Assembly: GCA_037139515.1 (NCBI GenBank)
Contig: JBAXGH010000005.1
Span: forward strand, 1-62,597
Source: a bacterium
GTDB lineage: Bacteria > Patescibacteriota > Patescibacteriia > JBAXGH01
Length of the DNA: 62,597 bases
Direction: 5' to 3'
Shown one piece after another: positions 9,635-57,680 of the stretch (the stretch's first letter is position 1; each line of letters begins with the position of its first letter). The notes beneath the pieces were generated by a model. The model saw only the letters and a list, made by a program, of their open reading frames with translations. It was not told where the DNA came from and searched no databases. A program made the position numbers and the translations under genes.

Positions 9635-9635
9635 A

Positions 9636-9727: not shown

Positions 9728-9750
9728 CCTGCGGGTAAAATATTCGCCAT

Positions 9751-19490: not shown

Positions 19491-19865
19491 ATGTGGGTTA
19501 ACCGGCGCGAAATGGCTCGTGAAATTGCGGGACGGTTGAAGAATCACCTCGGAAACGATATTGAAGTTAGAGGAGTCGGGCGTTTTGGTGCCGCGATGGA
19601 AAAAGAAGCACGCGAAATCATGAAGGCTTCCACGGCTTCGAAACAAAATGTTTTATTGTTAATTGATAGCATTGAGCAGATTTCGGATGTCGAGCCGGCA
19701 ATCGTGGACTCGCGCAAACAGGGTTTTAAGCGCATAATACTTGGCGTTGGCGTGATGCCATCGACGCTTGTTGAGCCGGTTAAAAAAATCTCGAATGAGC
19801 TTTTTGTGCTTTTGGTGCCAAGATTTTTTCGTGCGACTGGTCAATATTTTGCCGGCGTGGATTAA
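19491..19865 (+). CDS. hypothetical protein
   Basis: 124-aa ORF, no motif recognised. Confidence 0.4.
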   Translation: MWVNRREMAREIAGRLKNHLGNDIEVRGVGRFGAAMEKEAREIMKASTASKQNVLLLIDSIEQISDVEPAIVDSRKQGFKRIILGVGVMPSTLVEPVKKISNELFVLLVPRFFRATGQYFAGVD

Positions 19866-19866
19866 T

Positions 19867-19920
19867 GTCGTAAATGTTTCCCTAATCTCTAAGCTCTAAC
19901 CCCTAATCTCTCGTCCCGCT
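19867..19920 (+). promoter_or_regulatory. R6 heptad pyrimidine-rich leader abutting the PAP2 ATG
   Basis: GTCGTAAATGTTTC then CCTAAT CTCTAAG CTCTAAC CCCTAAT CTCTCGT CCCGCT-ATG. Confidence 0.6.
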
Positions 19921-38531: not shown

Positions 38532-40094
38532 TCAGACGGACGTGTTCACGAGTTGGAGCTCTCTGATTCTTTCGTGCAGGGTGACGGCTTCCTTCGAAAG
38601 CGGGTGGCCGTTCTTTGCGATGAAGGAAATCATTCCCTTCGATTCGGCGAGCATCCTCTGGCGCGTGAGCCAGCGCACCGCTTCACCGTATTGCCGTCGG
38701 CTGAACTGACTCCCGAAGTTCTGCTCGATTTGCAGAACCAGCTTTTCGTTCGCGATAGGCGCCTTCATGCCCGAAATGTACGACAGGATGATTTGAGCGT
38801 GAAGCGCGACACCTCTTTCGCGAATCACGTCTTTCACCTGCAACGCGCCGTATTCGAAGGCGGGCTTGAATTCTTCCGGCTTCGATTGGATTTCAACCGA
38901 GGGTTCTTTCGAATTAGGCGCCTCGATTTCCGTGAAGTCCGCCGCGTGCCGGGTTTCTTTGTACATCGCGAGACGCTCGGCTCGGGTCATGGGTTTGGAG
39001 GACGGCGGAGTGCTGCTCGACAGCGGCTTCTTTTCTGCAGCATTCCGTTCCGCATCTGCAGTTTCCTGCAGTTTCCCGCGGCGCTCGTCTTCGGGAAGCT
39101 TCGCGAGCAAATCGACGAGCTTTTTGAAGCTTGCACGTCCGCGGCTGTGCTTTGCCGCGTCGAGCGCAAGTCCGGAGCCAATCTTCAGAACCGCAGTAAC
39201 CACTTCGTGGGCGGGGATGAGGGAAGAGAACTGGTTGCAGATTCGCGATGTGTTCAGGATTTCACCGCGCGCTCCCAGCGTCTTGATTTCCTCGACGCCG
39301 CAAATCGTCAGGCAGTCACGGATGAAGACTCCGCATTCGTGGACTTCCTCGGTCGTCTTTGCGAGCGCCTCGAGTGTCTCCGAATTGAGCTGACTCAGTC
39401 GCTTGGTGCTGTCATGCACCTTCAAGCCGGAGCACATGCTGACCTTGGCCATGTTGTTATAGATGGTCATGAGCGAGTCGCGTTTGCCGAAAACCGCTTC
39501 CCTTGGAACCTTCAGGTCCTCCGGAGTTTTGGTCGGCACGAACTTCCAAAGTTGTGCACTTGCGACGAAGAGGTCGATCATTTCCTGCCAGTCGGCTTCA
39601 TTCAATTCCGCGAGTCTCGGCAGATCTTGGGCGTCTTGAGGATAGTTCACGCTTCTCCCAAAAACCTCACGAGCCTCATCACAGGTCGGGACTGAGTCGA
39701 GCGCCATCATGATTTCGTGGAAGCGCGCCGCTCCGAGATTGTGGATGACGTCGTGGTTTGGGAGTATCACCGCATTCCTATCCGTGCGAGCGCGCGGCAA
39801 AGTTTGATCGACATGAATATCAACGCTCTGCAGCCAGTATTGGTAACTGGCACATTTTTCGGTGTGCTTTTGTTCAATGCACACGAGCGGGATGGGCTGC
39901 TTCGGAAGGCTGAAACTCCCGAAATATGATTCAGCCAACTCCTTCCAGTCAGCATCGGTCCATCCATTCACGGCTTTCGGGAGACGCTTCGTGAGGCAAG
40001 ATCGAAATGCATCCGCGAAGTGCGTGAAGAGCTGAGTTCTTGTCAGGTCGCGCAGGGAAATCGTAACATCGCCTTTTTCGTTGACCATTTTCAT
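38532..40094 (-). CDS. uncharacterised 520-aa protein, paralogue 1, with a C-terminal winged-helix-like module
   Basis: SD GGGAG. Shares blocks with 40221-41771: TISLRD, ARFHE, FIRDCLTIC, LVDLLAKLPE, LQVKDVI, LHAQ, FSRR..GEAVRWL. Confidence 0.75.
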   Translation of the reverse strand: MKMVNEKGDVTISLRDLTRTQLFTHFADAFRSCLTKRLPKAVNGWTDADWKELAESYFGSFSLPKQPIPLVCIEQKHTEKCASYQYWLQSVDIHVDQTLPRARTDRNAVILPNHDVIHNLGAARFHEIMMALDSVPTCDEAREVFGRSVNYPQDAQDLPRLAELNEADWQEMIDLFVASAQLWKFVPTKTPEDLKVPREAVFGKRDSLMTIYNNMAKVSMCSGLKVHDSTKRLSQLNSETLEALAKTTEEVHECGVFIRDCLTICGVEEIKTLGARGEILNTSRICNQFSSLIPAHEVVTAVLKIGSGLALDAAKHSRGRASFKKLVDLLAKLPEDERRGKLQETADAERNAAEKKPLSSSTPPSSKPMTRAERLAMYKETRHAADFTEIEAPNSKEPSVEIQSKPEEFKPAFEYGALQVKDVIRERGVALHAQIILSYISGMKAPIANEKLVLQIEQNFGSQFSRRQYGEAVRWLTRQRMLAESKGMISFIAKNGHPLSKEAVTLHERIRELQLVNTSV

Positions 40095-40135
40095 TTTGAA
40101 TCTCCCTTGGTGAGCGCATATTTCAGCGCTTTTTG

Positions 40136-40183
40136 GAAAGGTCCTACTTGTGCTATTTGGCCATGTTTACACGATATTGTCAA
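40136..40183 (-). promoter_or_regulatory. conserved upstream block of paralogue 1 (contains TTGACA)
   Basis: Minus strand reads TTGACAATATCGTGTAAACATGGCCAAATAGCACAAGTAGGACCTTTCC, which matches the block at 41811-41857. Confidence 0.5.
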
Positions 40184-40220
40184 GCTCTCGAATTTGACGA
40201 TTAAAAAAGCCCGCGAACTG

Positions 40221-41771
40221 CTAGTTAAGCTGGTTTGCGAGCAGGGAATTGATACGGTCATAAAGGAGCGAGGCTTCCTTCGAGAGCTTGCGCTCGGAGC
40301 GCTTCAGGAACACGAACCGGTTTTTGCTTCCATCGATGAGTCCGTTCTTGCTGAGCCATCGAATCGCTTCGCCGAACAGTCGTCGGCTGAACCTGGAAGC
40401 GAGTTCGGCTTCGACTTTTGCGAGCAGCGCTTCGGCCGCGATGGCGTCATCTTGGCCAACGAGATTTGCGAGGATGCTTTGAGCGTGTAGACCCACGGCC
40501 TTTTCCACAATCACATCTTTCACTTGAAGCTCAGAATACTTGAAAGGTGCGATTTTGATTTCGGCGGCGGGCATGATTTCGGGCACCAGCTCGACTGGCT
40601 GTTCCGGGTCGGTTTCGACTTCGGCGAGCTCTAGAGCTTCTTCGTAGGCACGCTTGCGCTCTTCGCGTGTGAGCGGCTTCGGCGAGCTGATCGACGGCTG
40701 CGAAGGTGGCGAACTTGGTGTCTGGTTCGCACTCATTTCCTTGAGCTTTGCAAAACGCTCGGCTTCGGGGAGTTTCGCGAGCAAATCGACGAGGCGTTCG
40801 AAAGCTTTCTTTCGGCCGAGAACGCTTCTCGCGGCTTCGAGCGTCAGCAAGGCGCCGAGCTTCAGAGCGGCTTTGACGATGATGTTTGGCGAGAGGGTTG
40901 CTCTGAACTCGCGCCAGATGACAACTACATTCGTAAGCTCATTGCGTCCGGAAACCGTCTTCACGTCTTCCGGGTTGCAAATCGTGAGACATTCACGCAC
41001 GAAGAGGTTATTCGGAAAAGCTTGGCAGGCAACTTCGAGGAGCTGGACGATGCTTGTTTCATCGAGACTATTCAGCACCACGGAGCAGCTCGTCGTTTCA
41101 AGGTCGGCGTAATCCATGATTTGAAAGATGCTGACAACAAGATCGCCGAGACACTTCTGCCAAAGAAGACTCACTTTGGTTGGCAATCTTTTCGCCGCGA
41201 AGAAGGGAGAAACCTTCGCGGTCAGCATCCTGGCACCGGCGAGGATGGCAACTTTGAGCGTTTGCCATTCGTACTCGCTGTGTTCACGGAGAGGCTTGCG
41301 CCCGTCGATTGTCTCGAACCGATCCATGCACTCAAGAAACGCCACCTGGCAGTCTTCATGGAGCGGCAGCGTGATGAACTCGCGCATGACTTCATGAAAC
41401 CGCGCGGAACCCATTTTTTCGGCACAGAGATTGCTTGGTAGCATGACTGTGCCCTGACCGGGCGGGAAGCGCAGAAAAGTTCGGCTGATGTGTTCGCCGA
41501 CGATCTGTTTCCACACCGGAACTGCGTAGCAATCCGTGTTCTTGTGGTTTTCTACGATGCACTTGTATGGCAAATGAGTTTCGAGCCGGAAGTTCCGGAA
41601 GTAGTACTCAGCTGCATCGAGCCAGGTAGCTTCGGTCCAGTCGCCGATTGACTCCGGGACCATTTCGACCAGGTTTTCACGGAACGTTGTCTTGAAGCAC
41701 CGGAATAGTTCGGCGCGTGAGATATCACGCATCGAAATCGTTGCTTCGCCTTCGTCGTTGATTAGATCCAC
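40221..41771 (-). CDS. uncharacterised 516-aa protein, paralogue 2
   Basis: GTG start preceded by AAGGAG. Homologous to 38532-40094 along its full length. Confidence 0.75.
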   Translation of the reverse strand: MDLINDEGEATISMRDISRAELFRCFKTTFRENLVEMVPESIGDWTEATWLDAAEYYFRNFRLETHLPYKCIVENHKNTDCYAVPVWKQIVGEHISRTFLRFPPGQGTVMLPSNLCAEKMGSARFHEVMREFITLPLHEDCQVAFLECMDRFETIDGRKPLREHSEYEWQTLKVAILAGARMLTAKVSPFFAAKRLPTKVSLLWQKCLGDLVVSIFQIMDYADLETTSCSVVLNSLDETSIVQLLEVACQAFPNNLFVRECLTICNPEDVKTVSGRNELTNVVVIWREFRATLSPNIIVKAALKLGALLTLEAARSVLGRKKAFERLVDLLAKLPEAERFAKLKEMSANQTPSSPPSQPSISSPKPLTREERKRAYEEALELAEVETDPEQPVELVPEIMPAAEIKIAPFKYSELQVKDVIVEKAVGLHAQSILANLVGQDDAIAAEALLAKVEAELASRFSRRLFGEAIRWLSKNGLIDGSKNRFVFLKRSERKLSKEASLLYDRINSLLANQLN

Positions 41772-43492: not shown

Positions 43493-44071
43493 ATGTTGAA
43501 ACGCTTAATTGCTGTTCTCGCCATAGTGCTTACCTCGGGTCTTCTTGCCACTCCGCTCGTCGCCTCAGCTGCTACGTGCCCGTGTGTGTGCGAAACGACT
43601 CCGGTAGTGCACATCGGTGACCTTATTAAGGTCGCTGACCGTTCTACGGTGTTCTACATCGCTGAAAACGGTAAACGCTATAACTTCCCGAATGCGGGAG
43701 TTTACAAGTCTTGGTTCGGTAACGACTTCTCGAAAGTGAAGACCGTTTCCAAAGCGGAGCTTCAGCTTCGCCCGCTCGGTGGATACGTTTCGTATCGCCC
43801 GGGTACCAAGCTCATCCAGTTCAACGGTTCGAGCGCTGTTTATGCCATCGGCAAGAACGGTGAACTCCGACACCTTGAAACCCCAAAGGTTGCCGCCGAA
43901 ATTTTCGGTGCTAACTGGAAGAAAATGATCGTGAAATTGCCGGCTTCTTTCTACGGTGCCTATTCGAACTCTTTCGTCATTAAAACGGCGTCTGATTACA
44001 CGAAGGTTACCCAGTCTGAACCTGTCGAAATCTCGTTCACCGTGCCGCTTCACATGACTGTGATGCGCTAA
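43493..44071 (+). CDS. secreted hypothetical protein
   Basis: Signal-peptide-like MLKRLIAVLAIVLTSGLLATPLVASA. Confidence 0.6.
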   Translation: MLKRLIAVLAIVLTSGLLATPLVASAATCPCVCETTPVVHIGDLIKVADRSTVFYIAENGKRYNFPNAGVYKSWFGNDFSKVKTVSKAELQLRPLGGYVSYRPGTKLIQFNGSSAVYAIGKNGELRHLETPKVAAEIFGANWKKMIVKLPASFYGAYSNSFVIKTASDYTKVTQSEPVEISFTVPLHMTVMR

Positions 44072-44114: not shown

Positions 44115-44127
44115 TATTCTCCTGGTT

Positions 44128-44150
44128 GTCATCCCGAAGCCGAGGGATCT
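44128..44150 (+). repeat. R1 hairpin repeat
   Basis: GTCATCCCGAAGCCGAGGGATCT. Confidence 0.85.
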
Positions 44151-44231
44151 AGTCATGGTTTTTCGCTTTACTCAAGATGACGAACGGGGGTAGAGTATCT
44201 TTGGAAACCGTTCCAAACCAGAGGAAAGGAG

Positions 44232-44606
44232 ATGGAGATGGAGCTCGGACTGCTTGGGTTCTTGCTCATGATGCTCGTTCCGATCATGCAATCGCACATG
44301 CTGGAGCCGTATTTAGGGAGACTCCGCCTGAAGCGGGCGATTTACGAGCTTGCTTGCGAATTCGATGTCTGGAGGTTGCCAATGTTGCCGGTCGCCGCAC
44401 ACACGCAGTCGATGTTCGCTCAGCTTCAGATGCCGCGTTTTGGCGCCGTGATTGGTGCCGCCGCCTGGCTTGCCGTTCTTTGTTTGGCTTTTGGGCCGCT
44501 CTTTTTCTATGATCAGAGCCCCGGGAAGCAGCTTTTCCACGAGAAACCGGAGTTCAGGTTCGTGAGTCCGGACATGCCAAATACGGCCATCTGTCCAAGC
44601 CGCTGA
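44232..44606 (+). CDS. hypothetical membrane protein
   Basis: SD AAGGAG, two hydrophobic segments. Confidence 0.55.
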   Translation: MEMELGLLGFLLMMLVPIMQSHMLEPYLGRLRLKRAIYELACEFDVWRLPMLPVAAHTQSMFAQLQMPRFGAVIGAAAWLAVLCLAFGPLFFYDQSPGKQLFHEKPEFRFVSPDMPNTAICPSR

Positions 44607-44622
44607 AAAGCGGTCTTTTTTA
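44600..44622 (+). terminator. rho-independent terminator
   Basis: CCGCT-gaaa-AGCGG followed by TCTTTTTT. Confidence 0.7.
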
Positions 44623-44658
44623 TCGCTAGAATTAGCCTATTTATCATGTCAGAAAGAC

Positions 44659-44687
44659 TTGACATAAACTATTAAATATGATATGAT
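44659..44687 (+). promoter_or_regulatory. candidate sigma70-like promoter
   Basis: TTGACA, 17-nt spacer, TATGAT. Confidence 0.5.
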
Positions 44688-44755
44688 TTACTAGCAAACA
44701 AGTACTTTATTCGCTCACTACCGCGTCGGCCTTGGCTGACGCAGAAGGGTTTTCT

Positions 44756-45106
44756 GTGAAGACGCTCTTGTTGGTCCTCTCGCTGATGGTGATTTCCACC
44801 CCCGTCCTGGCTCAATCCGAGCCTTCCGCCCCGATGGCCCCGTTCCCGCCGCCGGCCCCAGCCGCTCCGGTCGCACCCGGCACTCGTCCCGCCAAGCCGA
44901 AGACCACCACGGTGGTCTTGGTCGACTGGGTGAAAGTCAACGCGGTCCTCGGCTTCATCGTCAACAGCAGTGCCCGCGGTTTCGCGAAGGGCTGGCACAC
45001 GCCGCTCCCGAAGAACTCTCCGCAGACGAGCGGGAGCAGGACGACGGTGCACCGTTACGGCGTCCCCGGCGCCATGGTCACGGAGACCTGCCGGGATTGC
45101 CGATAG
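44756..45106 (+). CDS. secreted Pro/Ala-rich hypothetical protein
   Basis: GTG start after GAAGGG. Signal-like KTLLLVLSLMVISTPVLAQ. Confidence 0.5.
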   Translation: MKTLLLVLSLMVISTPVLAQSEPSAPMAPFPPPAPAAPVAPGTRPAKPKTTTVVLVDWVKVNAVLGFIVNSSARGFAKGWHTPLPKNSPQTSGSRTTVHRYGVPGAMVTETCRDCR

Positions 45107-45144
45107 TCGATTCACCCTCGGCAGTTATCCGGAATTTTCCAGTT

Positions 45145-45193
45145 GTCATCCTTCGGCCCTCCCGTTGTCATCCCGAAGCCGAGGGATCTTGAA
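45145..45193 (+). repeat. partial plus full R1 hairpin repeat
   Basis: GTCATCCTTCGGCCCTCCC followed by GTCATCCCGAAGCCGAGGGATCTTGAA. Confidence 0.85.
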
Positions 45194-45238
45194 GAGGTTG
45201 TGTGGCGGATCGAAAGGTTCGCCGGAAAGGAAAGCAGC

Positions 45239-45406
45239 ATGTTGAGCCTCACCCTCGCCGCGTTCCTGTCTCTCCCGACCCCGATGATGCCCGCGAGTAC
45301 CGTGCCCGCTGGCATCATCCCCACCCTCATCGCCCTCCGCGTCCCGGTCGGGCTGGAGGCGGAGAAGCGCAAGAAGCATCACAACAAGAAGCGGCGCAGC
45401 AAGTAG
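45239..45406 (+). CDS. small hypothetical protein with a basic tail
   Basis: 55 aa, ends KRKKHHNKKRRSK. Weak call. Confidence 0.35.
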   Translation: MLSLTLAAFLSLPTPMMPASTVPAGIIPTLIALRVPVGLEAEKRKKHHNKKRRSK

Positions 45407-45491
45407 TAGCACCGCTTCAGCCCGCCCACCACCGTCCGGTCGTACAGATTCATTTGTGCGGCCGGACTTTTCAAACTCAGTAAAGGTTCCC

Positions 45492-45552
45492 GGCGAGCGC
45501 CTTAACAAAGCTCGCCCCTAAACTTTGAGCCATCACATTCCCGTGTTGGCTC
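45492..45552 (+). repeat. island spacer, type B hairpin plus pre-SD hairpin
   Basis: GGCGAGC-gccttaacaaa-GCTCGCC, then GAGCCA-tcacattcccgtgt-TGGCTC, then GGAG and ATG 45571. Confidence 0.75.
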
Positions 45553-45570
45553 GAACGAACGGAGAAAGTC

Positions 45571-45828
45571 ATGATTGAAGGAGACGCAATTCTCGGTGAT
45601 ATCGTGGAGGTCATGCACTATGACCGCAATCGACAACAGAACACGTTTTGGCGTGACGTTTACCATCGCATCACGGCGCACGCCGGTCATCGCGAGGGGA
45701 ACTGCATGTCTCACAATATGCAGATTCTGTGCGGTCGGCGAACGGAAGAGGTGATCGCGGTTGCGCGCGACCTCGGCGTCGATCCGCGGACCGAAGACCT
45801 CGCGACGCTGCTCGGACTCGTTCAGTAG
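45571..45828 (+). CDS. hypothetical protein
   Basis: SD GGAGAAAG, 85 aa. Confidence 0.55.
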   Translation: MIEGDAILGDIVEVMHYDRNRQQNTFWRDVYHRITAHAGHREGNCMSHNMQILCGRRTEEVIAVARDLGVDPRTEDLATLLGLVQ

Positions 45829-45840
45829 TAGGAGGGCCAG

Positions 45841-46146
45841 ATGACGGTTGAAGAGAGGTTGATAAGAGCACGAAAGTCGGCGGATTCGGCACGAGCCAAG
45901 GCGGAGAGTTTGGCCCTGGAAATGCCAATCGAAGAGACCCGGCTGGCAGCCGAAATGAACCGCGAAGTCGTTATGCGGATTGGTGAGACCATCGCTGCTC
46001 TCAAGGGCGATGATCACGACAGGTTCATGGCGGCGTGGCATCAGGCTGATGCAGCCGCGGCAAAGCTCATCGGCTTGAACAATCTGATGATCGCGGCGAT
46101 CAGAAAGATTGTCGAACGTTCGGGGGCTTCGGGCGAGTGCGTTTGA
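45841..46146 (+). CDS. hypothetical helical protein
   Basis: SD AGGAGGG, 101 aa. Confidence 0.55.
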   Translation: MTVEERLIRARKSADSARAKAESLALEMPIEETRLAAEMNREVVMRIGETIAALKGDDHDRFMAAWHQADAAAAKLIGLNNLMIAAIRKIVERSGASGECV

Positions 46147-46162
46147 AGCGGTGCTCTTTAAA

Positions 46163-46265
46163 GGTCCGGAAGTATCCTGCTGCTCGAAGTCTTAACTGAC
46201 TCGCGCGAAAATTCCGTCCCTGTCATGTTCCAACATTCAACCGGCGACGAATCAACTTTGTCGTC
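46163..46265 (+). repeat. island spacer, type A hairpin plus pre-SD hairpin
   Basis: GGTCCGGAAGTATCCTGCTGCTCGAAGTCTTAACTGACTCGCGCGAAAATTCC, then GACGA-atcaactttg-TCGTC, then AGAAGGG and ATG 46279. Confidence 0.75.
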
Positions 46266-46278
46266 AGAAGGGAAATTC

Positions 46279-46782
46279 ATGTTTGCGCAAATGATTCCGA
46301 TGTTCGTGTTGGTGGCAGGTTCGACGTCAGGCGACTGGAGCAGTTCGACCAGCTCGACGAACGGTCATTGTTCGTCTTCCTCGTATGCGACGTTCATGAG
46401 TGAGGAATATCGGGCGCCGGTAGATGTCACCGAACAAGATGTCGCAATGCCGTCGCCGGTCGCCGTCGAAGCGTCGAATCGCTGGATGGTATTCTCGCCC
46501 AGTGTTTCCGCGAGCGGTTGCTCGAGCGAGTGCGTGTGGACGCAGAGTTCGAGTTCGAGTTACTTCGCGCCCGAGTACTTTCTTCCGCTCACCCGCATCG
46601 AGCAATTCGAGCCGCACCTTGTTGAGCGGGGCAACGTGAGTGGCGAAAAGCTCAGCCAGCCCGTCGGCGAAGAGCGCGCACAAGCGGGTTTCGGAGCGAT
46701 GATGTGGATCGAGCCCGCTCAGCTCAACTCCCGAGACGGCCGCAGCAAGAAGCAGCGCAGCCGCACTCGAAGAAAGAAGTGA
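46279..46782 (+). CDS. Ser-rich hypothetical protein with a basic tail
   Basis: ATG 46279 follows the spacer. The last ~20 codons lie inside a sequence duplicated at 48462-48529. Confidence 0.5.
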   Translation: MFAQMIPMFVLVAGSTSGDWSSSTSSTNGHCSSSSYATFMSEEYRAPVDVTEQDVAMPSPVAVEASNRWMVFSPSVSASGCSSECVWTQSSSSSYFAPEYFLPLTRIEQFEPHLVERGNVSGEKLSQPVGEERAQAGFGAMMWIEPAQLNSRDGRSKKQRSRTRRKK

Positions 46783-46793
46783 GCTGTTTAAAA

Positions 46794-46884
46794 GGTCCGG
46801 AAGTATCCTGCGCTTGAAGTCTTAACCGGTTCGCGCGAAACTTCCATCCCCAATTCAGCGCATCACAACCCGTGGTGAACTGAA
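46794..46884 (+). repeat. island spacer, type A hairpin plus pre-SD hairpin
   Basis: GGTCCGGAAGTATCCTGCGCTTGAAGTCTTAACCGGTTCGCGCGAAACTTCCATCCCC, then TTCAG-cgCAtCACaacccGTGgTGaa-CTGAA, then AGGAG. Confidence 0.8.
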
Positions 46885-46894
46885 AGGAGTAAGA

Positions 46895-47140
46895 ATGGAA
46901 AAAGCTCAGCTGATTCTCACAATCGACTGCAAGCGGGCAATCCCTGTTATGTCCGGCGCCTTCATCCGGTTTCATGGCGAAACCGTCGGTGATGACGAGG
47001 ATGATGAGCTGGTCGCCAAGATTATTGCCGCTGAAGCCTACGGCGACTCGCAAGCGGAGGCGCACAAGGCGCTTCTCAGAAAGCTCGAAGACCCCAGGCT
47101 GAGTCCACTGAAAATGTGGATTCGGAGTCTCGAGTTCTAG
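46895..47140 (+). CDS. hypothetical acidic protein
   Basis: SD AAGGAG, 81 aa. Confidence 0.55.
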   Translation: MEKAQLILTIDCKRAIPVMSGAFIRFHGETVGDDEDDELVAKIIAAEAYGDSQAEAHKALLRKLEDPRLSPLKMWIRSLEF

Positions 47141-47194
47141 TCCTTTCTCTGGTTATTAACAGGGGACAGTCCCCAGTGAATAGCTCACGGTTCC

Positions 47195-47269
47195 GGCGAG
47201 CGCCGTATCAAAAAGCTCGCCATCCCAATTCAGCCACTGTGAATCACGCGCCTCGCGTGGTCGGCTGAA
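47195..47269 (+). repeat. island spacer, type B hairpin plus pre-SD hairpin
   Basis: GGCGAGC-gccgtatcaaaaa-GCTCGCC, then TTCAGCcAC..CACGCG-cct-CGCGTG..GGCTGAA. A single GGGGACAGTCCCC lies upstream at 47162-47174. Confidence 0.8.
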
Positions 47270-47281
47270 CAGGAGATACTC

Positions 47282-47518
47282 ATGAAAGATGTCGAGGTTG
47301 AAGATTTTGAGCGCAAGCATTTCGAGCGTGTGCAGAAGATGCTTCCACTCATGTGCGTGTTGGGCATCTCTACGGTGCTCGCTTGCTGGATCGGTGGTGC
47401 GTTCTTCCCGGAGGAATTCGTGATTCCGGTGAAGGCTATGACCGCATTGCCCTTGATTGGAGTGTATGTCTTCCTCATGCACGTCACGAAGAAGCTCGCG
47501 CCGGTCAGGACGAAATAG
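47282..47518 (+). CDS. small membrane protein
   Basis: SD AGGAG, two TM segments. Confidence 0.55.
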   Translation: MKDVEVEDFERKHFERVQKMLPLMCVLGISTVLACWIGGAFFPEEFVIPVKAMTALPLIGVYVFLMHVTKKLAPVRTK

Positions 47519-47552
47519 CCAAGAAGCGCGCAGCAATCGGTAAACGGTCATT

Positions 47553-47618
47553 GGCGAGCGCCGTATCAAAAAAAGCTCGCCTCTGTAATCCGAGCCACCA
47601 CACACCCGTTGTGGCTCG
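47553..47618 (+). repeat. island spacer, type B hairpin plus pre-SD hairpin
   Basis: GGCGAGC-gccgtatcaaaaaaa-GCTCGCC, then CGAGCCAC-cacacacccgtt-GTGGCTCG, then GGAGGAG. Confidence 0.8.
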
Positions 47619-47634
47619 AACCTACGGAGGAGTC

Positions 47635-48021
47635 ATGAATGCACATTTGAAGGAAATCTTTGGTGAATTCTTCTTGGAGAACAACGACCCGTCGCTCGAC
47701 GTGACCATCTACGAGGTGGTGCGCCGCTTCGGCCACGATGTCGAGGACCTGCTACGTCGGTACTATCCGGTCAAGGATCGGCAGCTCGGAGCGGCGCTCG
47801 TGTATGCCGACATCCTGCAGTTCGTTCACGAGCACGAACGGGATTTCGGGCACGAGCTCTTCTGGGAGCTACACGGACTTGTGGAGACCGGTGCGTTCAG
47901 CTGGAGCATCAAGGGCCTGGAGCGCACCGTGTATCTGGAGAGGCTGAGCATGTTGCAGCTTCGGAATGCGAAAGAGCTGGATTTCCTCCACACCGTTACC
48001 GGCGTCGACATGTATATGTAA
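47635..48021 (+). CDS. hypothetical protein
   Basis: SD GGAGGAG, 128 aa from the internal ATG of ORF 47353-48021. Confidence 0.55.
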   Translation: MNAHLKEIFGEFFLENNDPSLDVTIYEVVRRFGHDVEDLLRRYYPVKDRQLGAALVYADILQFVHEHERDFGHELFWELHGLVETGAFSWSIKGLERTVYLERLSMLQLRNAKELDFLHTVTGVDMYM

Positions 48022-48023
48022 AA

Positions 48024-48124
48024 GGTCCGGAAGTATCCTGCGCTAGAAGTCTTGATTGACTCGCGCGAAACTTCCATCCCCAATTCAGCTACTGTGAATC
48101 ACGCACCCCGCGTGGTCGGCTGAA
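48024..48124 (+). repeat. island spacer, type A hairpin plus pre-SD hairpin
   Basis: GGTCCGGAAGTATCCTGCGCTAGAAGTCTTGATTGACTCGCGCGAAACTTCCATCCCC, then TTCAGCtAC..CACGC-acccc-GCGTG..GGCTGAA. Confidence 0.8.
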
Positions 48125-48134
48125 CAGGAGATGC

Positions 48135-48488
48135 ATGGAGACATTGAAGGGTATGGTCGCGGTTTTGATGCTTTGTAGCGTCGGCTATGGTTTTCTGTAC
48201 AAATTCTTCGGGGTTACCACAATCACGGCGAATGTCGACGGCGTAGCGGTCACGGGTGCCGAAGTCTTCGTCGATGGGATCAAGGTCGGAGTGACACCCT
48301 GGAGTGCACGGCTTGGACCGGGAATTTTTGACATCCTAATCCTACCACCGCCCTCAGTTCATTTCGGGAAGCAGGAGAAGCTGCTCAGGTTCGAGTCAGA
48401 TGTGCTCGGTGTTGATTACAGCGCCTCATTCAAGAGCGATGACGTGGTTCGAGCCCACACAACTCAACTCCCGATATGGGTGCAGTAA
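48135..48488 (+). CDS. PEGA-domain-like membrane-anchored protein
   Basis: N-terminal TM segment and VFVDGIKVGVTPW. Confidence 0.5.
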   Translation: METLKGMVAVLMLCSVGYGFLYKFFGVTTITANVDGVAVTGAEVFVDGIKVGVTPWSARLGPGIFDILILPPPSVHFGKQEKLLRFESDVLGVDYSASFKSDDVVRAHTTQLPIWVQ

Positions 48489-48529
48489 GAGGCGCAGTCG
48501 CGCTCGAAGAAAGAAGTGAGTTGTAAAAA

Positions 48530-48630
48530 GGTCCGGAAGTATCCTGCGCTTGAAGTCTTAACTGACTCGCGCGAAACTTCCATCCCCAATTCAGCTACTG
48601 TGAATCACGTACCTCGCGTGGTCGGCTGAA
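48530..48630 (+). repeat. island spacer, type A hairpin plus pre-SD hairpin
   Basis: GGTCCGGAAGTATCCTGCGCTTGAAGTCTTAACTGACTCGCGCGAAACTTCCATCCCC, then TTCAGCtAC..CACG-tacct-CGCGTG..GGCTGAA. Confidence 0.8.
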
Positions 48631-48643
48631 CAGGAGATTAAAA

Positions 48644-48847
48644 ATGATGACATTCGTGAGAGCTGGTCCCGGCGCGGTCATCGTTCGCGATGCGGAACCG
48701 GACGAAACCGAAGAGTCGGTTCAGCTCGCGCATGGGCCGACGGCTCATGTCATTGACCTCGAAGTCGTACAGAGCAATCCGAGGCTCGAAAAACTTCGGC
48801 AAAATGTTCTCAACCTGCAGAGCGCGATGACTGAGCTTCGTTTCTAA
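48644..48847 (+). CDS. hypothetical small protein
   Basis: SD AGGAG, 67 aa. Confidence 0.5.
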   Translation: MMTFVRAGPGAVIVRDAEPDETEESVQLAHGPTAHVIDLEVVQSNPRLEKLRQNVLNLQSAMTELRF

Positions 48848-48871
48848 CGCGGTCTGGATACGGGAGAAAGA

Positions 48872-49330
48872 ATGCTTCTTGGAACGGTTTTCATTCTTCG
48901 TGGAATTCCCGGGTCCGGGAAAACCTACTTTCGCACGAAACAGTTCCCCCGAGCCCTTGTGGCTTCGGCGGACGATTACTTCGCCCAAGGAGGTGAATTC
49001 AAATACGATAGTAGCAAGATTGCGCTTGCGCACCGGTTCTGCTGGAGGAAGTTCCACGCCGGGATGCTCGCCGAGTCGGCGAGCATCGTGATTGACAACA
49101 CGAATGTGCGGGTCGCGGATGTCGCGGCCTACGTGCTGCCGGCCGAAGCGCTCAACTACACCGCACGGGTCGTCACGTTCGTTTGCGACCCGGCGATTGC
49201 GGCGAGGCGCTGTGTTCACGGCGCACCCGAGGAGTACATCGTGCGCAAGGCGGAGGAGCTCGAAAACGAGACGGAGCTCTTTCCGCATTCGTGGACTCAC
49301 GAAATCGTGAAGTCTGGGGAGGCGCGATGA
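48872..49330 (+). CDS. P-loop NTPase/kinase (AAA_33 / polynucleotide-kinase-like)
   Basis: FILRGIPGSGKTY Walker A close to the N-terminus, plus VIDNTN. Confidence 0.6.
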   Translation: MLLGTVFILRGIPGSGKTYFRTKQFPRALVASADDYFAQGGEFKYDSSKIALAHRFCWRKFHAGMLAESASIVIDNTNVRVADVAAYVLPAEALNYTARVVTFVCDPAIAARRCVHGAPEEYIVRKAEELENETELFPHSWTHEIVKSGEAR

Positions 49331-49500
49331 ACCTTGGAATCTGCCTGGGCTGTGTTGTCGCGCTCGTCATGAGCGGCATGCACCTTCATCGCGGACAACA
49401 GTTCGGCTACGCGCTCGCCGGCATCGCGATTTGGGTTCTGCTCGGGGAGGGGTTCGAAATTATTCAGAAGAACCTTGAAGACGAGCGTGGCGATGAGTGA
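49327..49500 (+). CDS. small membrane protein
   Basis: ATGA overlap with the upstream gene, two hydrophobic segments. Confidence 0.45.
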   Translation: MNLGICLGCVVALVMSGMHLHRGQQFGYALAGIAIWVLLGEGFEIIQKNLEDERGDE

Positions 49501-49627
49501 GTTCCTCAGGGTATTCTTCGACCGGGTGGCGCTCGTGATACTCTCGGTGCACGGATGGATTTCCGGGTACTGGGACTACGCAGTCGAGTTCGCGCATGCG
49601 GATCTTTCAAAGGCCGAGCAGGTTTGA
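49493..49627 (+). CDS. small hypothetical protein (44 aa)
   Basis: Translated by hand as MSEFLRVFFDRVALVILSVHGWISGYWDYAVEFAHADLSKAEQV. Overlaps the upstream stop. Confidence 0.35.
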   Translation: MSEFLRVFFDRVALVILSVHGWISGYWDYAVEFAHADLSKAEQV

Positions 49628-49648
49628 ACTGCAAGGCCTTTTTTGTTT
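49610..49648 (+). terminator. rho-independent terminator
   Basis: AAGGCC...GGCCTT followed by TTTTGTTTG. Confidence 0.6.
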
Positions 49649-49823
49649 GTGATTTTGCGTGATTTTCGATAAGCTGAGTTTGGCGCAAGGAGGTTGTCAT
49701 GATGGTCATCACGATCTTGCTGCTGTTGTTCCTTCTCGCGGTTCTTGTGAACGTATTCATGAACCAGTCAACCGCATCCGAGAAATTCTTCGGCTGATGA
49801 AAGGGGAGATGGTGAGGAAGAAC

Positions 49824-49931
49824 ATGAGTTTGTATACGAGGAAGCTTCACAGGGCTTTGATTCTGAACGCCCTCGCGGCATTCGGATTGCTCTTCGGAGT
49901 AATCGCGCTTGTTTGGTGGTATGGCTCGTGA
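49824..49931 (+). CDS. small TM protein (35 aa), start uncertain
   Basis: GAGGAAG before the ATG. Sequence is MSLYTRKLHRALILNALAAFGLLFGVIALVWWYGS. Confidence 0.3.
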   Translation: MSLYTRKLHRALILNALAAFGLLFGVIALVWWYGS

Positions 49932-49933
49932 AA

Positions 49934-49962
49934 CCCGCCCGGTTTTGGGCGGGATTTTTTTT
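49934..49962 (+). terminator. rho-independent terminator
   Basis: CCCGCCC-ggtttt-GGGCGGG followed by ATTTTTTTT. Confidence 0.75.
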
Positions 49963-49993
49963 GTTTTGCTTTTGTTGTTATGAGGTTTTTGTT

Positions 49994-50134
49994 GTCATCC
50001 TCGACGGCCGAGGGATCTTGAAAAGACGAATTCGAAGGGAATGTTAGATCCCTCGGCTTCGGGATGACAACGGGGAGTGGCTTCGGGATGACAATATAAG
50101 TACCTGGGATGACAACTTAAAACGGGATGGCAAC
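49994..50134. repeat. inverted pair of R1 units plus 3 further GGGATGACAA half-sites
   Basis: GTCATCCTCGACGGCCGAGGGATCTTGAA (49994-50022) and GATCCCTCGGCTTCGGGATGAC (50047-50068). GATG(A/G)C restarts at 50063, 50087, 50108 and 50126. Confidence 0.85.
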
Positions 50135-50373
50135 TAAGGAAAAGCAACAGCTTGTGGAGCTATGATCAATCTTTTCTGTGGATAAGTGTCGCGAAATGTA
50201 GCGGAGTGGGACAAAGTGGTATAAAATGGGGAATGGAGGACCAGAATCTCGGGAGCTGTGGATATCTGCGTGACACGGAACGCGCAGAAGTCCGCAGAAA
50301 CTCGGGGTTCTGGCACTTCAACGGAGGCTTTCGGGATGCGGAGAAAAGAGTTGTTAGCGATTGCGCTTAGGGA

Positions 50374-50422
50374 TATCTCTAAGCTCTAATCTCTAAGCTC
50401 TAATCACTCCCGCCCCCACATC
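50374..50422 (+). promoter_or_regulatory. R6 heptad pyrimidine-rich leader abutting the mraZ ATG
   Basis: TCTCTAAG CTCTAAT CTCTAAG CTCTAAT CACTCCC GCCCCCA CATC-ATG. Confidence 0.6.
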
Positions 50423-52909: not shown

Positions 52910-54144
<1,235 letters not shown>

Positions 54145-54232
54145 GTGGTAAGTGCGCAGGTAGATAAGTACTACTTTTGCTGCCACTTATTTACTTACCA
54201 CTTACTGCTTGCCCCTGCTATAATGCTCCTGT

Positions 54233-54610
54233 ATGGCACAAACCAAGGGAGCCGCAATCAGCAGTTTTATTTTCAAAGATTTAATCGGCAGCGTTTTGGC
54301 TTTTCCGCTTTGGTGGTTTTGGAGCGGCGTTCCTTATTTCGTCAAAGTGTATCGTCGTGCTTGGCGTAATTTTTCAAATGAATTCGGCGTCGGAGTTTGG
54401 ATGAAAAACTTATTTGTGCCGATGTATGGCGCGCGCGATATTTCCGGGCGCCTGATTAGTTTTATAATCCGCCTGTTTCAGGTGATTGTACGCAGTTTTG
54501 CCATGGTGATCGTCACCATGATTACGCTTCCGCTGCTTTTGATTTGGCTTTTCCTGCCGATTATCGCAATCGTTGCGCTCATCACACAGTTTATCGGACT
54601 TTTCTCATAA
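54233..54610 (+). CDS. hypothetical membrane protein
   Basis: 125 aa, 3-4 TM segments. Confidence 0.55.
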   Translation: MAQTKGAAISSFIFKDLIGSVLAFPLWWFWSGVPYFVKVYRRAWRNFSNEFGVGVWMKNLFVPMYGARDISGRLISFIIRLFQVIVRSFAMVIVTMITLPLLLIWLFLPIIAIVALITQFIGLFS

Positions 54611-54612
54611 AT

Positions 54613-57312
54613 ATGGCGAACGAAAATTTTGTAAAAATCTGCGGCCAGTGCGACGGAACCGGACTGCGTGCCGGGTCGCCTTGCAGCGCCTGCGATGGTT
54701 TGGGTGCGATTACGCAGATCGGTGAAACACAGTTTACGCTTTCAAGAAGACTTGATGGTGTGGGTTTCGTCTTGCGTGCTTTCGAAAGCAAAATCGGATT
54801 ATTGATAAACCTGGGAGCCATGGTTTTTGGATTACTGGCAGCCGTTCTTTTCGTGCTGCAGATTATTAAGCGTCCTTTTACTGATTTGATTACGTTGGAA
54901 TTCTGGCGCACATCTTCGGTCGGGGTCACGGCTTTTTGGCTCGCGCTTCTGCTCGCGTGTTTTGTGGTCTATCGCGGCATCAGACTTTCGGAGAGAATTC
55001 GCCATCTCTCGGAAAAGACCGAAAACGTTGATGCTCATCCAATCGAGTTTACATCAGCAAAAAAACCGATTGATATCGCTGAATCTTTTGCGCCGGAAGT
55101 TGAAAAGATGCTGGATACGGCGCTTGCAATTGCGCGAGGTGCAAAATCGGCCAAAATCATGCCAGCGCATTTGTTTTTGGCCGGATTCGCGACTCAGTCC
55201 GGGGCGAATTTGATGTGGAGACTGGGCCTTGCGGTCGAAGCGATAAAACCTGAATTGTGGGCTTTGTTTGGGCCGAATCTTCCGGAGAATGAGAGCGAAC
55301 CTGTTTATGGCGCCGAAGCTCGCACGGTTTTATTTGAATCATTCCGGCTCGCGCTTCAGGAAAAACGGCCTTTTGTTTCCGGGGTTGAAATTGTGCTCGC
55401 TGCGGTTCATGAAAGTAAAGAGTTACAGGAAGTATTGTTCCGAGCCGGTGTTGCATTGGAGCAGTTTGAAAATGCCGCCGCCTGGATTCGTTCCATTCGC
55501 GATTTGCAAAACTGGAAACAGAAATTTAGCCGTGCCGCGGCCGAGCGTCCGGGTGGTCCGATGAATCGCGCCATGACTTCGATTGCGACGCCACTTTTGG
55601 ATGCTTTCTCCGATGATTTGACGACGATGGCGCAATTTGGGCAACTCGCACCGCTTGTCGGTCGCGAACGCGAGATGCAGGGGGTTTTGAATATCATGGA
55701 ATCCGGTCATCAAAGCGTGGTACTTGTTGGTGCGAACGGTGTTGGGCGCGATGCGATTGTGAACGGTCTTGCGATGCGCATGGTGCTTGAAGACGTGCCG
55801 AAGATTTTGGCCGATAAACGCTTGCTCGCGCTTTCGATTCCGAAGCTCGTGGCCGGCGCGCAGGGATCGGACGCGAGCGAGATGCTGATTCGCGCACTGA
55901 ACGAAGCCGGAGTTTCTGGAAATGTAATTTTGGTGATTCCGAACATGGATTTGCTTTCCGGCACCGGCGCAAGCGGGGCGCTTGATTTGCTTGCGACTTT
56001 TGCTTCGGAATTGCAGAAGGGCTATCTCGTTACGATCGGCACAACAACTTCGGAATCATATTCAAAATCGATTGAACGCTCGGTACTCGGAACTTTGATG
56101 CAAAAAGTTCCGGTCGTTGAAATGTCGATTGACGACGCTATCAAGACTCTGGCTTTGAAGGTTGGCGCTTTTGAGTATCAATTTGGCACGCCGTTTAGCT
56201 ATGGCGCGCTTGAATCGGCGGTTCGCTTAACCGACCGTTATGATCATGATCGGTTACTGCCTGGAAAAGCGATTGAAGTTGCACGGGAAGCAGCGCTCGC
56301 GGTTTCAAAATCACGCGGCGTGAATGCCATGGTTCTTGCGGAAGATGTGGCAAAAATCGTTTCGGTCAAAGCGAATGTGCCGGTCACGGCGGTTTCGGCG
56401 GACGAATCTGCTAAATTATTAAATCTTGAAGCCGAAATCGGGAAGCGGGTGATTGGTCAGAAGCAGGCGGTCGAGGCTGTGTCCGCAGCACTGCGTCGGG
56501 CACGCACGGAACTTCGAAGCGGCAAACGCCCGATTGGTTCCTTCATGTTCTTGGGACCGACCGGTGTCGGAAAAACCGAGCTTTCAAAAGCTGTTGCAGA
56601 AGTCTACTTCGGTTCTGAAAAGAACATGATTCGGCTCGACATGTCGGAATATCAAGACCCTGGTTCGGTGAATCGCATGCTTGGCGTTCCCGGTTCTGGC
56701 GCAGGCGGAGTTTTGACCGAAGCAATGCGTAAGAATCCGTATACGCTGCTCTTGTGCGATGAACTTGAAAAAGCGCACAAAGATATTTTGAATTTATTCT
56801 TGCAGGTGATGGATGACGGGCGGCTTACGGACGCGACCGGTCGCACGGTTGATTTTACGAGTGCGATTGTAATCATGACTTCGAATGCCGGCACGCAGTT
56901 CATTCAAGATGCGCTTGCGGTCAAGAAACCGGTCGATGAAATCAAGAAACAGTTGATGGAAACCGAACTCAAAGCCACATATCGGCCGGAATTCCTGAAC
57001 CGTTTTGATGAAGTCGTGGTTTTCACGCCACTCTCGCTCGCCGAATCTACAAAGATTGCGGAAATCATGGTGCTTGAAGTCGCGAATAAACTTGAAGATA
57101 AGGGAATTTACTTTGAAAGTTCGGAGGAGGCGATTGCGGATCTGGCACGCAAAGGATATGACCCGCTTTTCGGCGCGCGTCCGATGCGTCGCATGATCCA
57201 AGACACGCTCGAAAACGCGATTGCAAACTTGATGCTCAAGGGGGAACTGGCACGCGGGGACAAGGCGATACTCGAAGTCGGCGGAACCGTGACAGTAGAA
57301 AAGAAAAAATAA
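54613..57312 (+). CDS. ClpA/B/C-family AAA+ ATPase with an N-terminal zinc ribbon and TM segments; D1 motifs are degenerate
   Basis: CGQCDGTGLRAGSPCSACDGLG. D1 has GANGVGRD and VIPNMD in place of GxxGVGKT and DE. D2 is intact: GPTGVGKTE, LLLCDELEKA. Confidence 0.8.
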   Translation: MANENFVKICGQCDGTGLRAGSPCSACDGLGAITQIGETQFTLSRRLDGVGFVLRAFESKIGLLINLGAMVFGLLAAVLFVLQIIKRPFTDLITLEFWRTSSVGVTAFWLALLLACFVVYRGIRLSERIRHLSEKTENVDAHPIEFTSAKKPIDIAESFAPEVEKMLDTALAIARGAKSAKIMPAHLFLAGFATQSGANLMWRLGLAVEAIKPELWALFGPNLPENESEPVYGAEARTVLFESFRLALQEKRPFVSGVEIVLAAVHESKELQEVLFRAGVALEQFENAAAWIRSIRDLQNWKQKFSRAAAERPGGPMNRAMTSIATPLLDAFSDDLTTMAQFGQLAPLVGREREMQGVLNIMESGHQSVVLVGANGVGRDAIVNGLAMRMVLEDVPKILADKRLLALSIPKLVAGAQGSDASEMLIRALNEAGVSGNVILVIPNMDLLSGTGASGALDLLATFASELQKGYLVTIGTTTSESYSKSIERSVLGTLMQKVPVVEMSIDDAIKTLALKVGAFEYQFGTPFSYGALESAVRLTDRYDHDRLLPGKAIEVAREAALAVSKSRGVNAMVLAEDVAKIVSVKANVPVTAVSADESAKLLNLEAEIGKRVIGQKQAVEAVSAALRRARTELRSGKRPIGSFMFLGPTGVGKTELSKAVAEVYFGSEKNMIRLDMSEYQDPGSVNRMLGVPGSGAGGVLTEAMRKNPYTLLLCDELEKAHKDILNLFLQVMDDGRLTDATGRTVDFTSAIVIMTSNAGTQFIQDALAVKKPVDEIKKQLMETELKATYRPEFLNRFDEVVVFTPLSLAESTKIAEIMVLEVANKLEDKGIYFESSEEAIADLARKGYDPLFGARPMRRMIQDTLENAIANLMLKGELARGDKAILEVGGTVTVEKKK

Positions 57313-57326
57313 CTACTCGGAATACA

Positions 57327-57424
57327 GAAAGTGCGGACCTATATGTCGCGTTCAGGGGATAGTCCCCTGCGGCTTTGGGGACAGTCCCCGTCGAACGCGA
57401 CATATATAGGCTCCGTACACTTTC
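57327..57424. repeat. R3 long hairpin with a nested R2 paired-palindrome core
   Basis: GAAAGTGCGGACCTATATGTCGCGTTC-a-GGGGATAGTCCCC-tgcggcttt-GGGGACAGTCCCC-gtc-GAACGCGACATATATAGGCTCCGTACACTTTC. Confidence 0.8.
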
Positions 57425-57494
57425 TTTACTGGTTTGCTGATGTCGTTTTTGTTTTTAGCCGTCATCCGGTTCTGACTGTCAGATTGCTCTAGTT

Positions 57495-57519
57495 GTCATC
57501 CCGAAGCCGAGGGATCTTG
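57495..57519 (+). repeat. R1 hairpin repeat
   Basis: GTCATCCCGAAGCCGAGGGATCTTG. Confidence 0.85.
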
Positions 57520-57680
57520 CGCTCGAAATGTTGGCGAGTCGAGCTTCCTTGAGCGCGCTACCTAACTTGGGTAGAAGCACATGGAGCACTCGCTCGCCGA
57601 ATTCGCGTAGGGGTTGGAGGAGGAATGGGAAAGACATCGCGCTCGACGGCGCGGTGTTTTTGTTGTAAAAAGGCTTCGTT

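Follow-up and report, generated by a model that had tools for sequence, protein, structure and literature searches.

Organisation and Gene Content of the Island

The stretch of DNA analysed here (contig JBAXGH010000005.1, positions 1 to 62,597 of the forward strand; 62,597 nt, hereafter the window) carries at 44.1–50.0 kb an island of 16 small open reading frames (ORFs), all on the plus strand, some of which are separated by structured intergenic spacers that we refer to as linkers. The linkers recur at the corresponding locus of a related genome, designated L129, among other genes. The names of the relatives of its UvrC protein (Candidatus Uhrbacteria or Patescibacteria) indicate that the host is a Patescibacteria/Uhrbacteria-like bacterium of the candidate phyla radiation. 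The island is located between uvrC, with a gene for a 192-aa secreted protein on its 3' side, and mraZ-rsmH, the wider context being uvrA-uvrC ... mraZ-rsmH. It consists of three parts (Table 1): a leader (44.1–45.5 kb) with ORF1, a strong promoter, the secreted ORF2, one copy of a repeat termed R1, ORF3 and a terminator-like hairpin; the linker array (45.5–48.65 kb); and a linker-free tail (48.65–49.95 kb).

An earlier note on this DNA had considered that the island might be a chimeric assembly. An independent assembly in the ENA database is 100% identical to the window across the island, and a Logan contig matches positions 48580–50015; therefore, the island is unlikely to be a product of assembly chimerism. 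Relative to the window, the second assembly of the same population has 17 substitutions and two single-base indels, all within 53.1–57.7 kb (53171; 53640–57633), one of the indels, at 53171, frameshifting tgt in the window, while the island itself is identical in it.

The array ORFs are real genes: coding periodicity was detected in every island ORF, with mean G+C contents of 0.58, 0.40 and 0.72 at the first, second and third codon positions, respectively. The host mean at the third position (GC3) is 0.54, and the 192-aa flank gene is host-like in this respect, with a GC3 of 0.60 and no Shine–Dalgarno sequence (SD). A GGAG, GAGG or AGGA motif precedes 12 of the 14 called island genes, compared with an SD-like motif in 13 of 43 host genes (Fisher p = 4e-4). 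Since both GC3 and SD use set the array genes apart from the host genes, they form a compositionally and translationally distinct compartment. Many of the array ORFs encode signal peptides or membrane helices, as read from their translations. As regards the host genes, many of the 43 checked have a TATAAT-like box directly 5' of the ATG, suggesting leaderless or short-leader mRNAs.

Most of the array proteins have no detectable relatives. In an exhaustive phmmer search of the concatenated ORF4–ORF11 against 1.84 billion representative proteins, all eight ORFs matched themselves and seven matched nothing else, the exception being ORF10, and the 90% identity clusters of the array ORFs contain this genome only. 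Pfam, PHROGs, PADLOC and NCBIfam searches over the array ORFs recognised only the AAA_33 P-loop kinase encoded by ORF12 (Pfam E 2e-11; also matching phrog_2071). For ORF10, 39 relatives were found at E <= 1e-3, and the Pfam PEGA domain was present in seven of eight relatives tested, while Pfam missed ORF10 itself. An AlphaFold2 model of ORF9, built without an alignment, reached a predicted local distance difference test (pLDDT) score of 57. In the earlier note about 16 small plus-strand ORFs, mostly SD-led, had been described in units of 2, 1, 1, 1, 1, 1 and 4 or more, and the count of 16, the SD usage and the unit structure all proved right, as did the call of a P-loop kinase; the PEGA-like call for ORF10 stands by transitive homology and not by a direct Pfam match.

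The orphan ORFs, their higher GC3 and their SD use unlike that of the host might point to a remnant of a phage or other mobile element, that is, a hyperplastic early region integrated beside mraZ whose regulatory motifs survived. ORF12 belongs to an ATPase/kinase family that is common in large phages, and the architecture of the array resembles phage regions discussed below. Such an origin is nevertheless quite improbable. A tblastn search of the ORFs against 50,697 phage records gave matches for ORF12 only (365 records, 27–33% identity), the other ORFs being unmatched in PHROGs as well, and a blastn search of the island against phages gave no match; thus, the ORFs do not correspond to a known prophage early region, which the earlier note had considered. 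Phage-type genes for structural proteins, replication, an integrase or lysis are lacking, as is an att duplication, and the note's failure to recognise an integrase, transposase or phage structural gene is borne out by the precomputed Pfam matches, which include none for any called gene in 0–57.7 kb. In addition, the occurrence of the same site and leader layout in two genomes with housekeeping genes 68–75% identical speaks for a long-lived chromosomal locus.

Table 1. Features of the island and its flanks in the window. H1 and H2, hairpins 1 and 2; CM, covariance model.
Feature	Position	Strand	Remarks
Conserved flank gene, 192-aa secreted protein	43493..44071	+	Last orthologous gene before the variable region; 44% identity over 170 aa to L129 4785–5405
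Host repeat R1, left flank	44125..44149	+	33-nt inverted match to 50045–50077
ORF1, 124-aa membrane-like orphan	44232..44606	+	Followed by terminator-like hairpin 44599–44614
Sigma-70-like promoter	44659..44687	+	TTGACA-17-TATGAT, 11/12, TG-extended; likely array promoter
ORF2, leader gene, 116-aa secreted protein	44756..45106	+	C-terminal CRDCR; GC3 0.86
Host repeat R1 within island	45164..45188	+	
ORF3, 55 aa	45239..45406	+	GC3 0.93; followed by 15-bp hairpin and TTTT at ~45434–45470
Linker sp1	45479..45570	+	Box AAAGGT; H1 type B 45492–45516; H2 45524–45555; SD GGAG; CM 49 bits
ORF4 (85 aa) and ORF5 (101 aa), two-orphan cassette	45571..46146	+	Self-matches only; singleton clusters
Linker sp2	46147..46278	+	H1 type A 46168–46215; divergent H2 46243–46265; SD GGGA
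ORF6, 167-aa Ser-rich orphan	46279..46782	+	Signal-like N-terminus
Linker sp3	46783..46894	+	H1 type A 46799–46845; linker ATCCCCAATTCAGC; H2 46854–46884
ORF7, 81-aa orphan	46895..47140	+	
Linker sp4 (chimera)	47141..47281	+	Box ACGGT; H1 type B 47195–47221; H2 47229–47269; CM 58.7 bits
ORF8, 78-aa membrane orphan	47282..47518	+	
Linker sp5	47519..47634	+	Box AACGGT; H1 type B 47553–47581; H2 47591–47618; sp1 flavour; CM 52.6 bits
ORF9, 128-aa orphan	47635..48021	+	Predicted all-helical, low confidence
Linker sp6	48022..48134	+	H1 type A 48029–48075; H2 48084–48124
ORF10, 117-aa membrane-anchored PEGA-like protein	48135..48488	+	Sole ORF with relatives among ORF4–ORF11
Cassette-replacement scar	48434..48529	+	~95 nt; 81–82% copy of ORF6 3' end and downstream (46694–46792)
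Linker sp7	48489..48643	+	H1 type A 48535–48581; H2 48590–48630; 95% identity to sp6
Linker-free four-gene unit, ORF11 (67 aa), ORF12 (152 aa), ORF13 (57 aa), ORF14 (44 aa)	48644..49627	+	Starts and stops overlap or abut
Two tiny membrane ORFs, 32 and 40 aa	49699..49953	+	Canonical intrinsic terminator 49934–49953
R1 variant (+, 49993–50022) and R1 (-, 50047–50071)	49993..50071	.	Palindrome at right flank, ahead of mraZ promoter

Structure of the Linkers

Seven spacers between 45.49 and 48.63 kb share a bipartite design in which hairpin 1 is followed by hairpin 2, a GGAG SD and the ATG of the next gene. The linkers are about 90–140 nt long and have a constant order of elements: a short box with the sequence A(A/C)GGT, hairpin 1, which may be short (type B) or long (type A), a C-rich joint (often ATCCCCA), hairpin 2, SD and ATG. 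The box is nearly invariant and lies 2–9 nt upstream of hairpin 1. Type A is present in four copies, all of which share the exact 5' 18-mer GGTCCGGAAGTATCCTGC (four occurrences in the window versus 0.03 expected); type B (GGCGAGC-loop-GCTCGCC) is present in three. The coordinates of the seven spacers, the assignment of four of them to type A and three to type B, and the second hairpin with the following SD and ATG had been given correctly in the earlier note.

Word and motif searches, together with covariance-model searches, revealed no linker copies outside 45.4–48.7 kb in the window. Further afield, a 15-mer scan of genome contigs yielded 120 single chance matches only, an 18-mer scan of metagenome contigs gave three matches with no similarity beyond the word, and four exact-word scans of viral contigs, including IMG/VR, returned nothing but one chance match in a GC-rich phage coding region.

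Comparison with Related Genomes

In the genome with the most similar UvrC (L128, 72% identity), uvrC is followed by one 147-aa ORF and mraZ, without an array, and no linkers were found in 21 kb of this relative. Three more distant UvrC relatives have two to three genes between uvrC and mraZ and no arrays, and one further UvrC relative has other genes at the array position; the contig of another relative breaks off at uvrC. L129 is a comparably close relative, with identities of 86% for UvrA, 78% for MraZ and 66% for UvrC, and the only genome other than that of the window in which an array was found, making two in all. Its uvrC–mraZ gap contains the ortholog of the 192-aa gene (44%), a membrane ORF, a strong promoter, a secreted leader ORF and a 5-kb run of small ORFs, followed by mraZ. 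Two promoters ahead of the leader ORF, at 6406–6434 and 6471–6499, are equivalent to the window promoter at 44659, and the leader ORF itself (6547–6948) encodes a protein with a signal peptide and a C-terminal CNDCK, has a GC3 of 0.86 and occupies the same position as ORF2, to which it has no significant BLAST similarity. The run comprises about 12 small plus-strand ORFs without Pfam matches and, among them, eight linkers of the window's family.

The linker cores are 84–93.5% identical between the window and L129, while uvrA, uvrC, mraZ and rsmH have a nucleotide identity of 68–75%, and apart from these cores nothing in the 6-kb array can be aligned. Comparison of the two ORF sets by blastp gave only E values above 0.06, in a tiny search space, and tblastn gave nothing. 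The linker family is conserved between the two genomes and the genes between the linkers are unrelated, so that the fixed gene order of a simple operon, which the earlier note had envisaged as an alternative, is not what is seen at this orthologous site.

Seven of the L129 linkers are of type B and one is of the long form (7631–7671). Among the former, 8707–8746 (40 nt, 92.5% identity) and 10003–10033 (up to 93.5%) match window positions 47195–47234. The long-form element is homologous to type A; its three nested helices are kept, and the outer helix is changed from GGAAGU/ACUUCC to GGCGA/UCGCC. A covariance model of type B scored 31–59 bits on its own 10 training copies and had no other match of at least 19 bits in 823 kb of DNA examined, about 613 kb of which were unrelated control loci. 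The L129 array terminates (11906–12550) in an orphan type-B linker, downstream of which there is no convincing ORF.

Mosaic Linkers and a Replacement Scar

The left halves of the linkers (box and hairpin 1) and the right halves (joint, hairpin 2 and SD) are combined independently. In the window linker sp4, a left half of type B is followed by a right half 90–92% identical to the right halves of sp6 and sp7, which are type-A linkers, and the L129 linker L129_e shares its left half with L129_h (93–95%) and its right half with L129_k (90% over 50 nt). The order of linker types differs between the window and L129. In addition, a segment of about 95 nt upstream of hairpin 1 of sp7 is a copy of the 3' end of ORF6 and the sequence downstream of it (Table 1); its first part falls within the end of ORF10, in a different reading frame, and the remainder, past this gene, does not code for protein. 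Such a segment is what would be expected to remain if a cassette were replaced while the old 3' flank and linker were kept, and we take it to be a scar of this kind. The modular, shuffled-looking layout remarked upon in the earlier note is thus reflected both in the reassorted linker halves and in the scar.

One could hypothesise that the array is integron-like, and that the linkers are folded single-strand sites analogous to attC, in which a recombinase whose gene lies at another site of the genome recognises hairpin 1 and the ATCCCCA joint, as in clusters of attC sites lacking integron-integrases (CALINs). This is suggested by co-oriented, promoterless, SD-led orphan cassettes behind one strong upstream promoter, by imperfect palindromes that are strand-specific, species-specific and near-identical within a genome, like Vibrio cholerae repeats (VCRs), by the clustering of module breakpoints at the boundaries between hairpin 1, joint and hairpin 2, by the orphan linker after the last L129 ORF, and by a cassette content that is wholly different between relatives; the lack of an adjacent integrase is also a trait of CALINs. 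An attC identity was rejected, however, as the earlier note had done: RYYYAAC...GTTRRRY (R''/R') core pairs 40–140 nt apart were found in 0 of the 15 spacers of both genomes on either strand (0.09 in shuffles). The linkers also differ from attC sites in having two separate hairpins instead of one long bulged stem and in including the SD of the following gene, a feature foreign to attC sites, and their G–U wobbles, described below, suit RNA better than DNA. Finally, there is no IntI, and the precomputed Pfam matches, on which this search relied, include no tyrosine or serine recombinase in the 57.7 kb around the array or on the L129 locus. We therefore regard an integron-like nature of the array as unlikely.

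Folding of the Linkers and Expression Signals

Six of the seven window spacers fold better than their dinucleotide shuffles (z from -1.8 to -3.6), sp2 being weaker (-1.3), and the values for the L129 linkers range from -1.7 to -5.9, so that 13 of the 15 spacers reach z <= -1.8. The helix of type B is paired in 70 of 70 cells across the 10 copies, with one fully compensatory change of a C–G to a U–A pair, and its G–U wobbles become C–A mismatches if read on the opposite strand. Of the 15 spacers, 12 fold more stably on the plus than on the minus strand.

Pairing is possible between the box and the bases at the start of the hairpin loop (GCCGT or ACCG), giving an H-type pseudoknot with an A-rich third loop, an arrangement consistent in seven to eight of the 10 type-B elements and accompanied in sp1 by a compensatory case, AAGGT with GCCTT. 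The 5-bp pseudoknot helix does not beat shuffles in any single type-B element (P 0.1–0.9), and the predicted box–loop pseudoknot is to be taken as a lead only. Sequestration of the SD by the C-rich joint was also considered, but it does not set the linkers apart, as the pairing probability of their SD is 0.64, versus 0.70 in control genes, and the idea was dropped.

Scans for sigma-70-like promoters and U-tract terminators found none within either array. Both arrays have one strong promoter upstream and canonical terminators downstream, outside the linkers, and the linker hairpins are stable, yet no T-run follows them on the 3' side. No Rfam family reached its gathering score in either array, the six weak matches (E up to 1) all lying outside the linkers; over the whole window only one tRNA reached the gathering score.

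The sense-strand structure, the wobble pairs and the compensatory change, together with the fixed position between stop codon and SD and the conserved box with its possible pseudoknot, would also be expected if the linkers acted at the RNA level only, as intercistronic RNase sites, 3' stabilisers, translational operators or put/nut-like antitermination elements, gene turnover proceeding by unrelated means. Precedents exist in phages. In the T7 early operon and in SP82 early RNA, intercistronic RNase III sites serve as processing and stabilising punctuation. The hairpins between small co-transcribed genes are similar there, and their long interrupted stems are like those of type A; however, the 7-bp stem of type B is too short for RNase III, and linker conservation reaches the box and the joint. 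The start-associated sequences (SAS/ESAS) of Cluster K mycobacteriophages are fixed 13-mers, specific to gene families and of unknown function (Pope et al. 2011, PMC3203893). Like the linkers, they combine a conserved motif at the ribosome-binding site with imperfect inverted repeats ahead of it, the spacer being variable, and are numerous in each genome and uniform in orientation, but they occur in a phage context without a second hairpin module or evidence of shuffling, and their 13-bp motif GGGATAGGAGCCC is absent from the island and from the L129 array sequences. A purely regulatory or processing function leaves unexplained the reassorted linker halves and the scar abutting a linker; the genes flanked here are unrelated, unlike those of SAS/ESAS, the pseudoknot helix falls short of significance in single elements, and the linkers have no Rfam match. 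We consider it rather unlikely as a full account of the array.

Host Repeats at and around the Island

The R1 repeats had been taken in the earlier note as the bounds of the island. This claim did not survive: the R1 25-mer is a general host repeat with eight copies across the window, including one in the island and one in frame in tgt, plus two variant copies, and R1 inverted repeats were accordingly rejected as element termini or an island boundary. The copy in tgt (gene at 52910–54145) is a perfect R1 at 53488–53512, which is translated as VVIPKPRDP and is part of a longer repeat-derived insertion; therefore, R1-type repeats seem to be tolerated in coding sequence. In L129, the orphan linker is followed by R1-like inverted repeats, GTGTCATCTCGA...GAGAGATC, with compensatory differences from the window R1. 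Other host intergenic repeats are located at 4221–4310 and 9635–9730 and at 18601–18649, 19857–19905 and 50354–50402; one host repeat is an 8-nt-periodic AAATCAAG-type tract in inverted blocks, and another, a CTCTAAGCTCTAATCTCTAAGCTCTA motif, precedes several genes, mraZ among them.

In a host so rich in other repeats of this kind, the linkers might themselves be selfish elements multiplied in the intergenic spaces of the locus, similar to repetitive extragenic palindromic (REP) sequences, bacterial interspersed mosaic elements (BIMEs) or miniature inverted-repeat transposable elements (MITEs), which are likewise short imperfect palindromes repeated in transcribed intergenic DNA and can stabilise upstream mRNA. 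We find this very hard to accept. Unlike such elements, the linkers are not dispersed, none being present in the other 56 kb of the window or in the 21 kb of L128; all 15 copies have a single orientation and are tied to translation starts, always lying between a stop codon and an SD which they supply; they are conserved across genomes more strongly than genes; and no REP-associated tyrosine transposase (RAYT) or other transposase was seen.

Relation to Known Systems and Proposed Mode of Action

The closest described system is that of the promoter-early stem-loops (PeSLs) of T4-type phages, the other close analogue being chromosomal integrons with VCR-type attC sites, and the array belongs to neither family. 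PeSLs are composite intergenic motifs of about 100 bp which extend from the stop codon to the SD/ATG; located on either side of ORFans in hyperplastic regions, they bring about modular shuffling through recombination (Arbiol et al. 2010, PMC2839356; Comeau et al. 2014, PMC4122927). Like the linkers, they contain a stable stem-loop, flank ORFans and are conserved between genomes while the genes differ, and chimeric motifs mark recombination. In contrast to PeSLs, the linkers reside in a bacterial chromosome without phage genes, carry no sigma-70 promoter, have no evident terminator activity, possess two hairpins in two interchangeable forms and have no sequence similarity to PeSLs.

Taken together, the island may be a chromosomal hypervariable gene-cassette operon in which the linkers both punctuate the mRNA and serve as crossover points for homologous exchange, and we would put the probability of this interpretation at about one half. 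A strong promoter and a secreted leader gene would be followed, in one operon, by promoterless SD-led orphan ORFs or small ORF groups. The linkers would be transcribed within the long mRNA and act on its sense strand as cistron punctuation: hairpin 1 would protect the 3' end of the preceding cistron or bring about its processing, and hairpin 2 would, together with the SD, prepare translation initiation on the cistron that follows. From the conservation of the linker sequences we infer that the same elements could be crossover points for homologous recombination, by which cassettes would be swapped, deleted or inserted between the arrays of related cells. PeSLs operate in this manner in T4-type phages, and near-identical VCR-type attC repeats have a corresponding role in chromosomal integrons, whereas no integron integrase would be involved here. 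The mobility of the cassettes is inferred from sequence comparison, and the RNA role is a guess, given that the linkers, unlike PeSLs, have no recognisable promoter or U-tract.

Several observations weigh against the hypervariable-operon interpretation, beginning with this lack of PeSL-type signals. Cassette turnover is read from one comparison, between two array-bearing genomes. No polymorphism was found within the sampled population, the two assemblies having the same sequence throughout the island, nor was any cassette observed in excised or rearranged form. Sequestration of the SD is no greater than in control genes, and the homology available at the joint is short, about 15–45 nt, which is marginal for RecA-type exchange. 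The exact-word scans of viral, genome and metagenome collections gave no further copies, and a shared cassette pool is therefore not demonstrated; moreover, since about 10% of the genome is visible, linkers may occur elsewhere in it. The cassette system proposed in the earlier note is supported as far as the same linkers accompany unrelated ORFs in L129, while the movement of a single cassette was not seen and no recombinase was found.

A bolder version may also be formulated, in which the array would be a new type of gene-capture platform native to bacteria of the candidate phyla radiation, with exchange of orphan cassettes occurring at the hairpin linker, possibly pseudoknotted, through an unrecognised recombinase or a dedicated mechanism guided by RNA or DNA structure; this would be an analogue of integrons with an evolutionary origin independent of IntI and attC. 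We hold this to be doubtful.

Other Features of the Window

Two further regions of the window may be mentioned. At 181–2264 lies a module resembling a diversity-generating retroelement, with a bAvd gene at about 1368–1706 on the minus strand and a short RVT_1-like ORF at 1713–2264. A 128-nt repeat pair (839–966 versus 1246–1373, 84% identity) has the appearance of a template repeat paired with a variable repeat, the latter lying at the 3' terminus of the ORF 181–966.

Between uvrA and uvrC, at 38532–41771 on the minus strand, are two paralogous ORFs of 520 and 516 aa, which have no Pfam match, are SD-led and have a GC3 of 0.65–0.68. A tblastn search found no match to them in the loci of five relatives (L128, L129, L131, L134 and L135), and the pair appears to be a second lineage-specific insertion beside the uvr genes.

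Implications

Bacteria of the candidate phyla radiation have tiny genomes and depend on other cells, and the acquisition and turnover of their accessory genes are poorly understood. If the proposed interpretation is true, these bacteria would possess a dedicated chromosomal slot in which small secreted or membrane orphan proteins are swapped at structured linkers, which would be a concrete mechanism of diversification, and the principle of a linker combined with an ORFan cassette would then hold not only for T4-type phages and integrons but also for a bacterial chromosome that lacks an integrase. As a structure in RNA or DNA, the linker is compact, conserved and without a counterpart in Rfam, and the SD-led genes of the array, in a mostly SD-less host, offer a handle on translation initiation in this group of bacteria.

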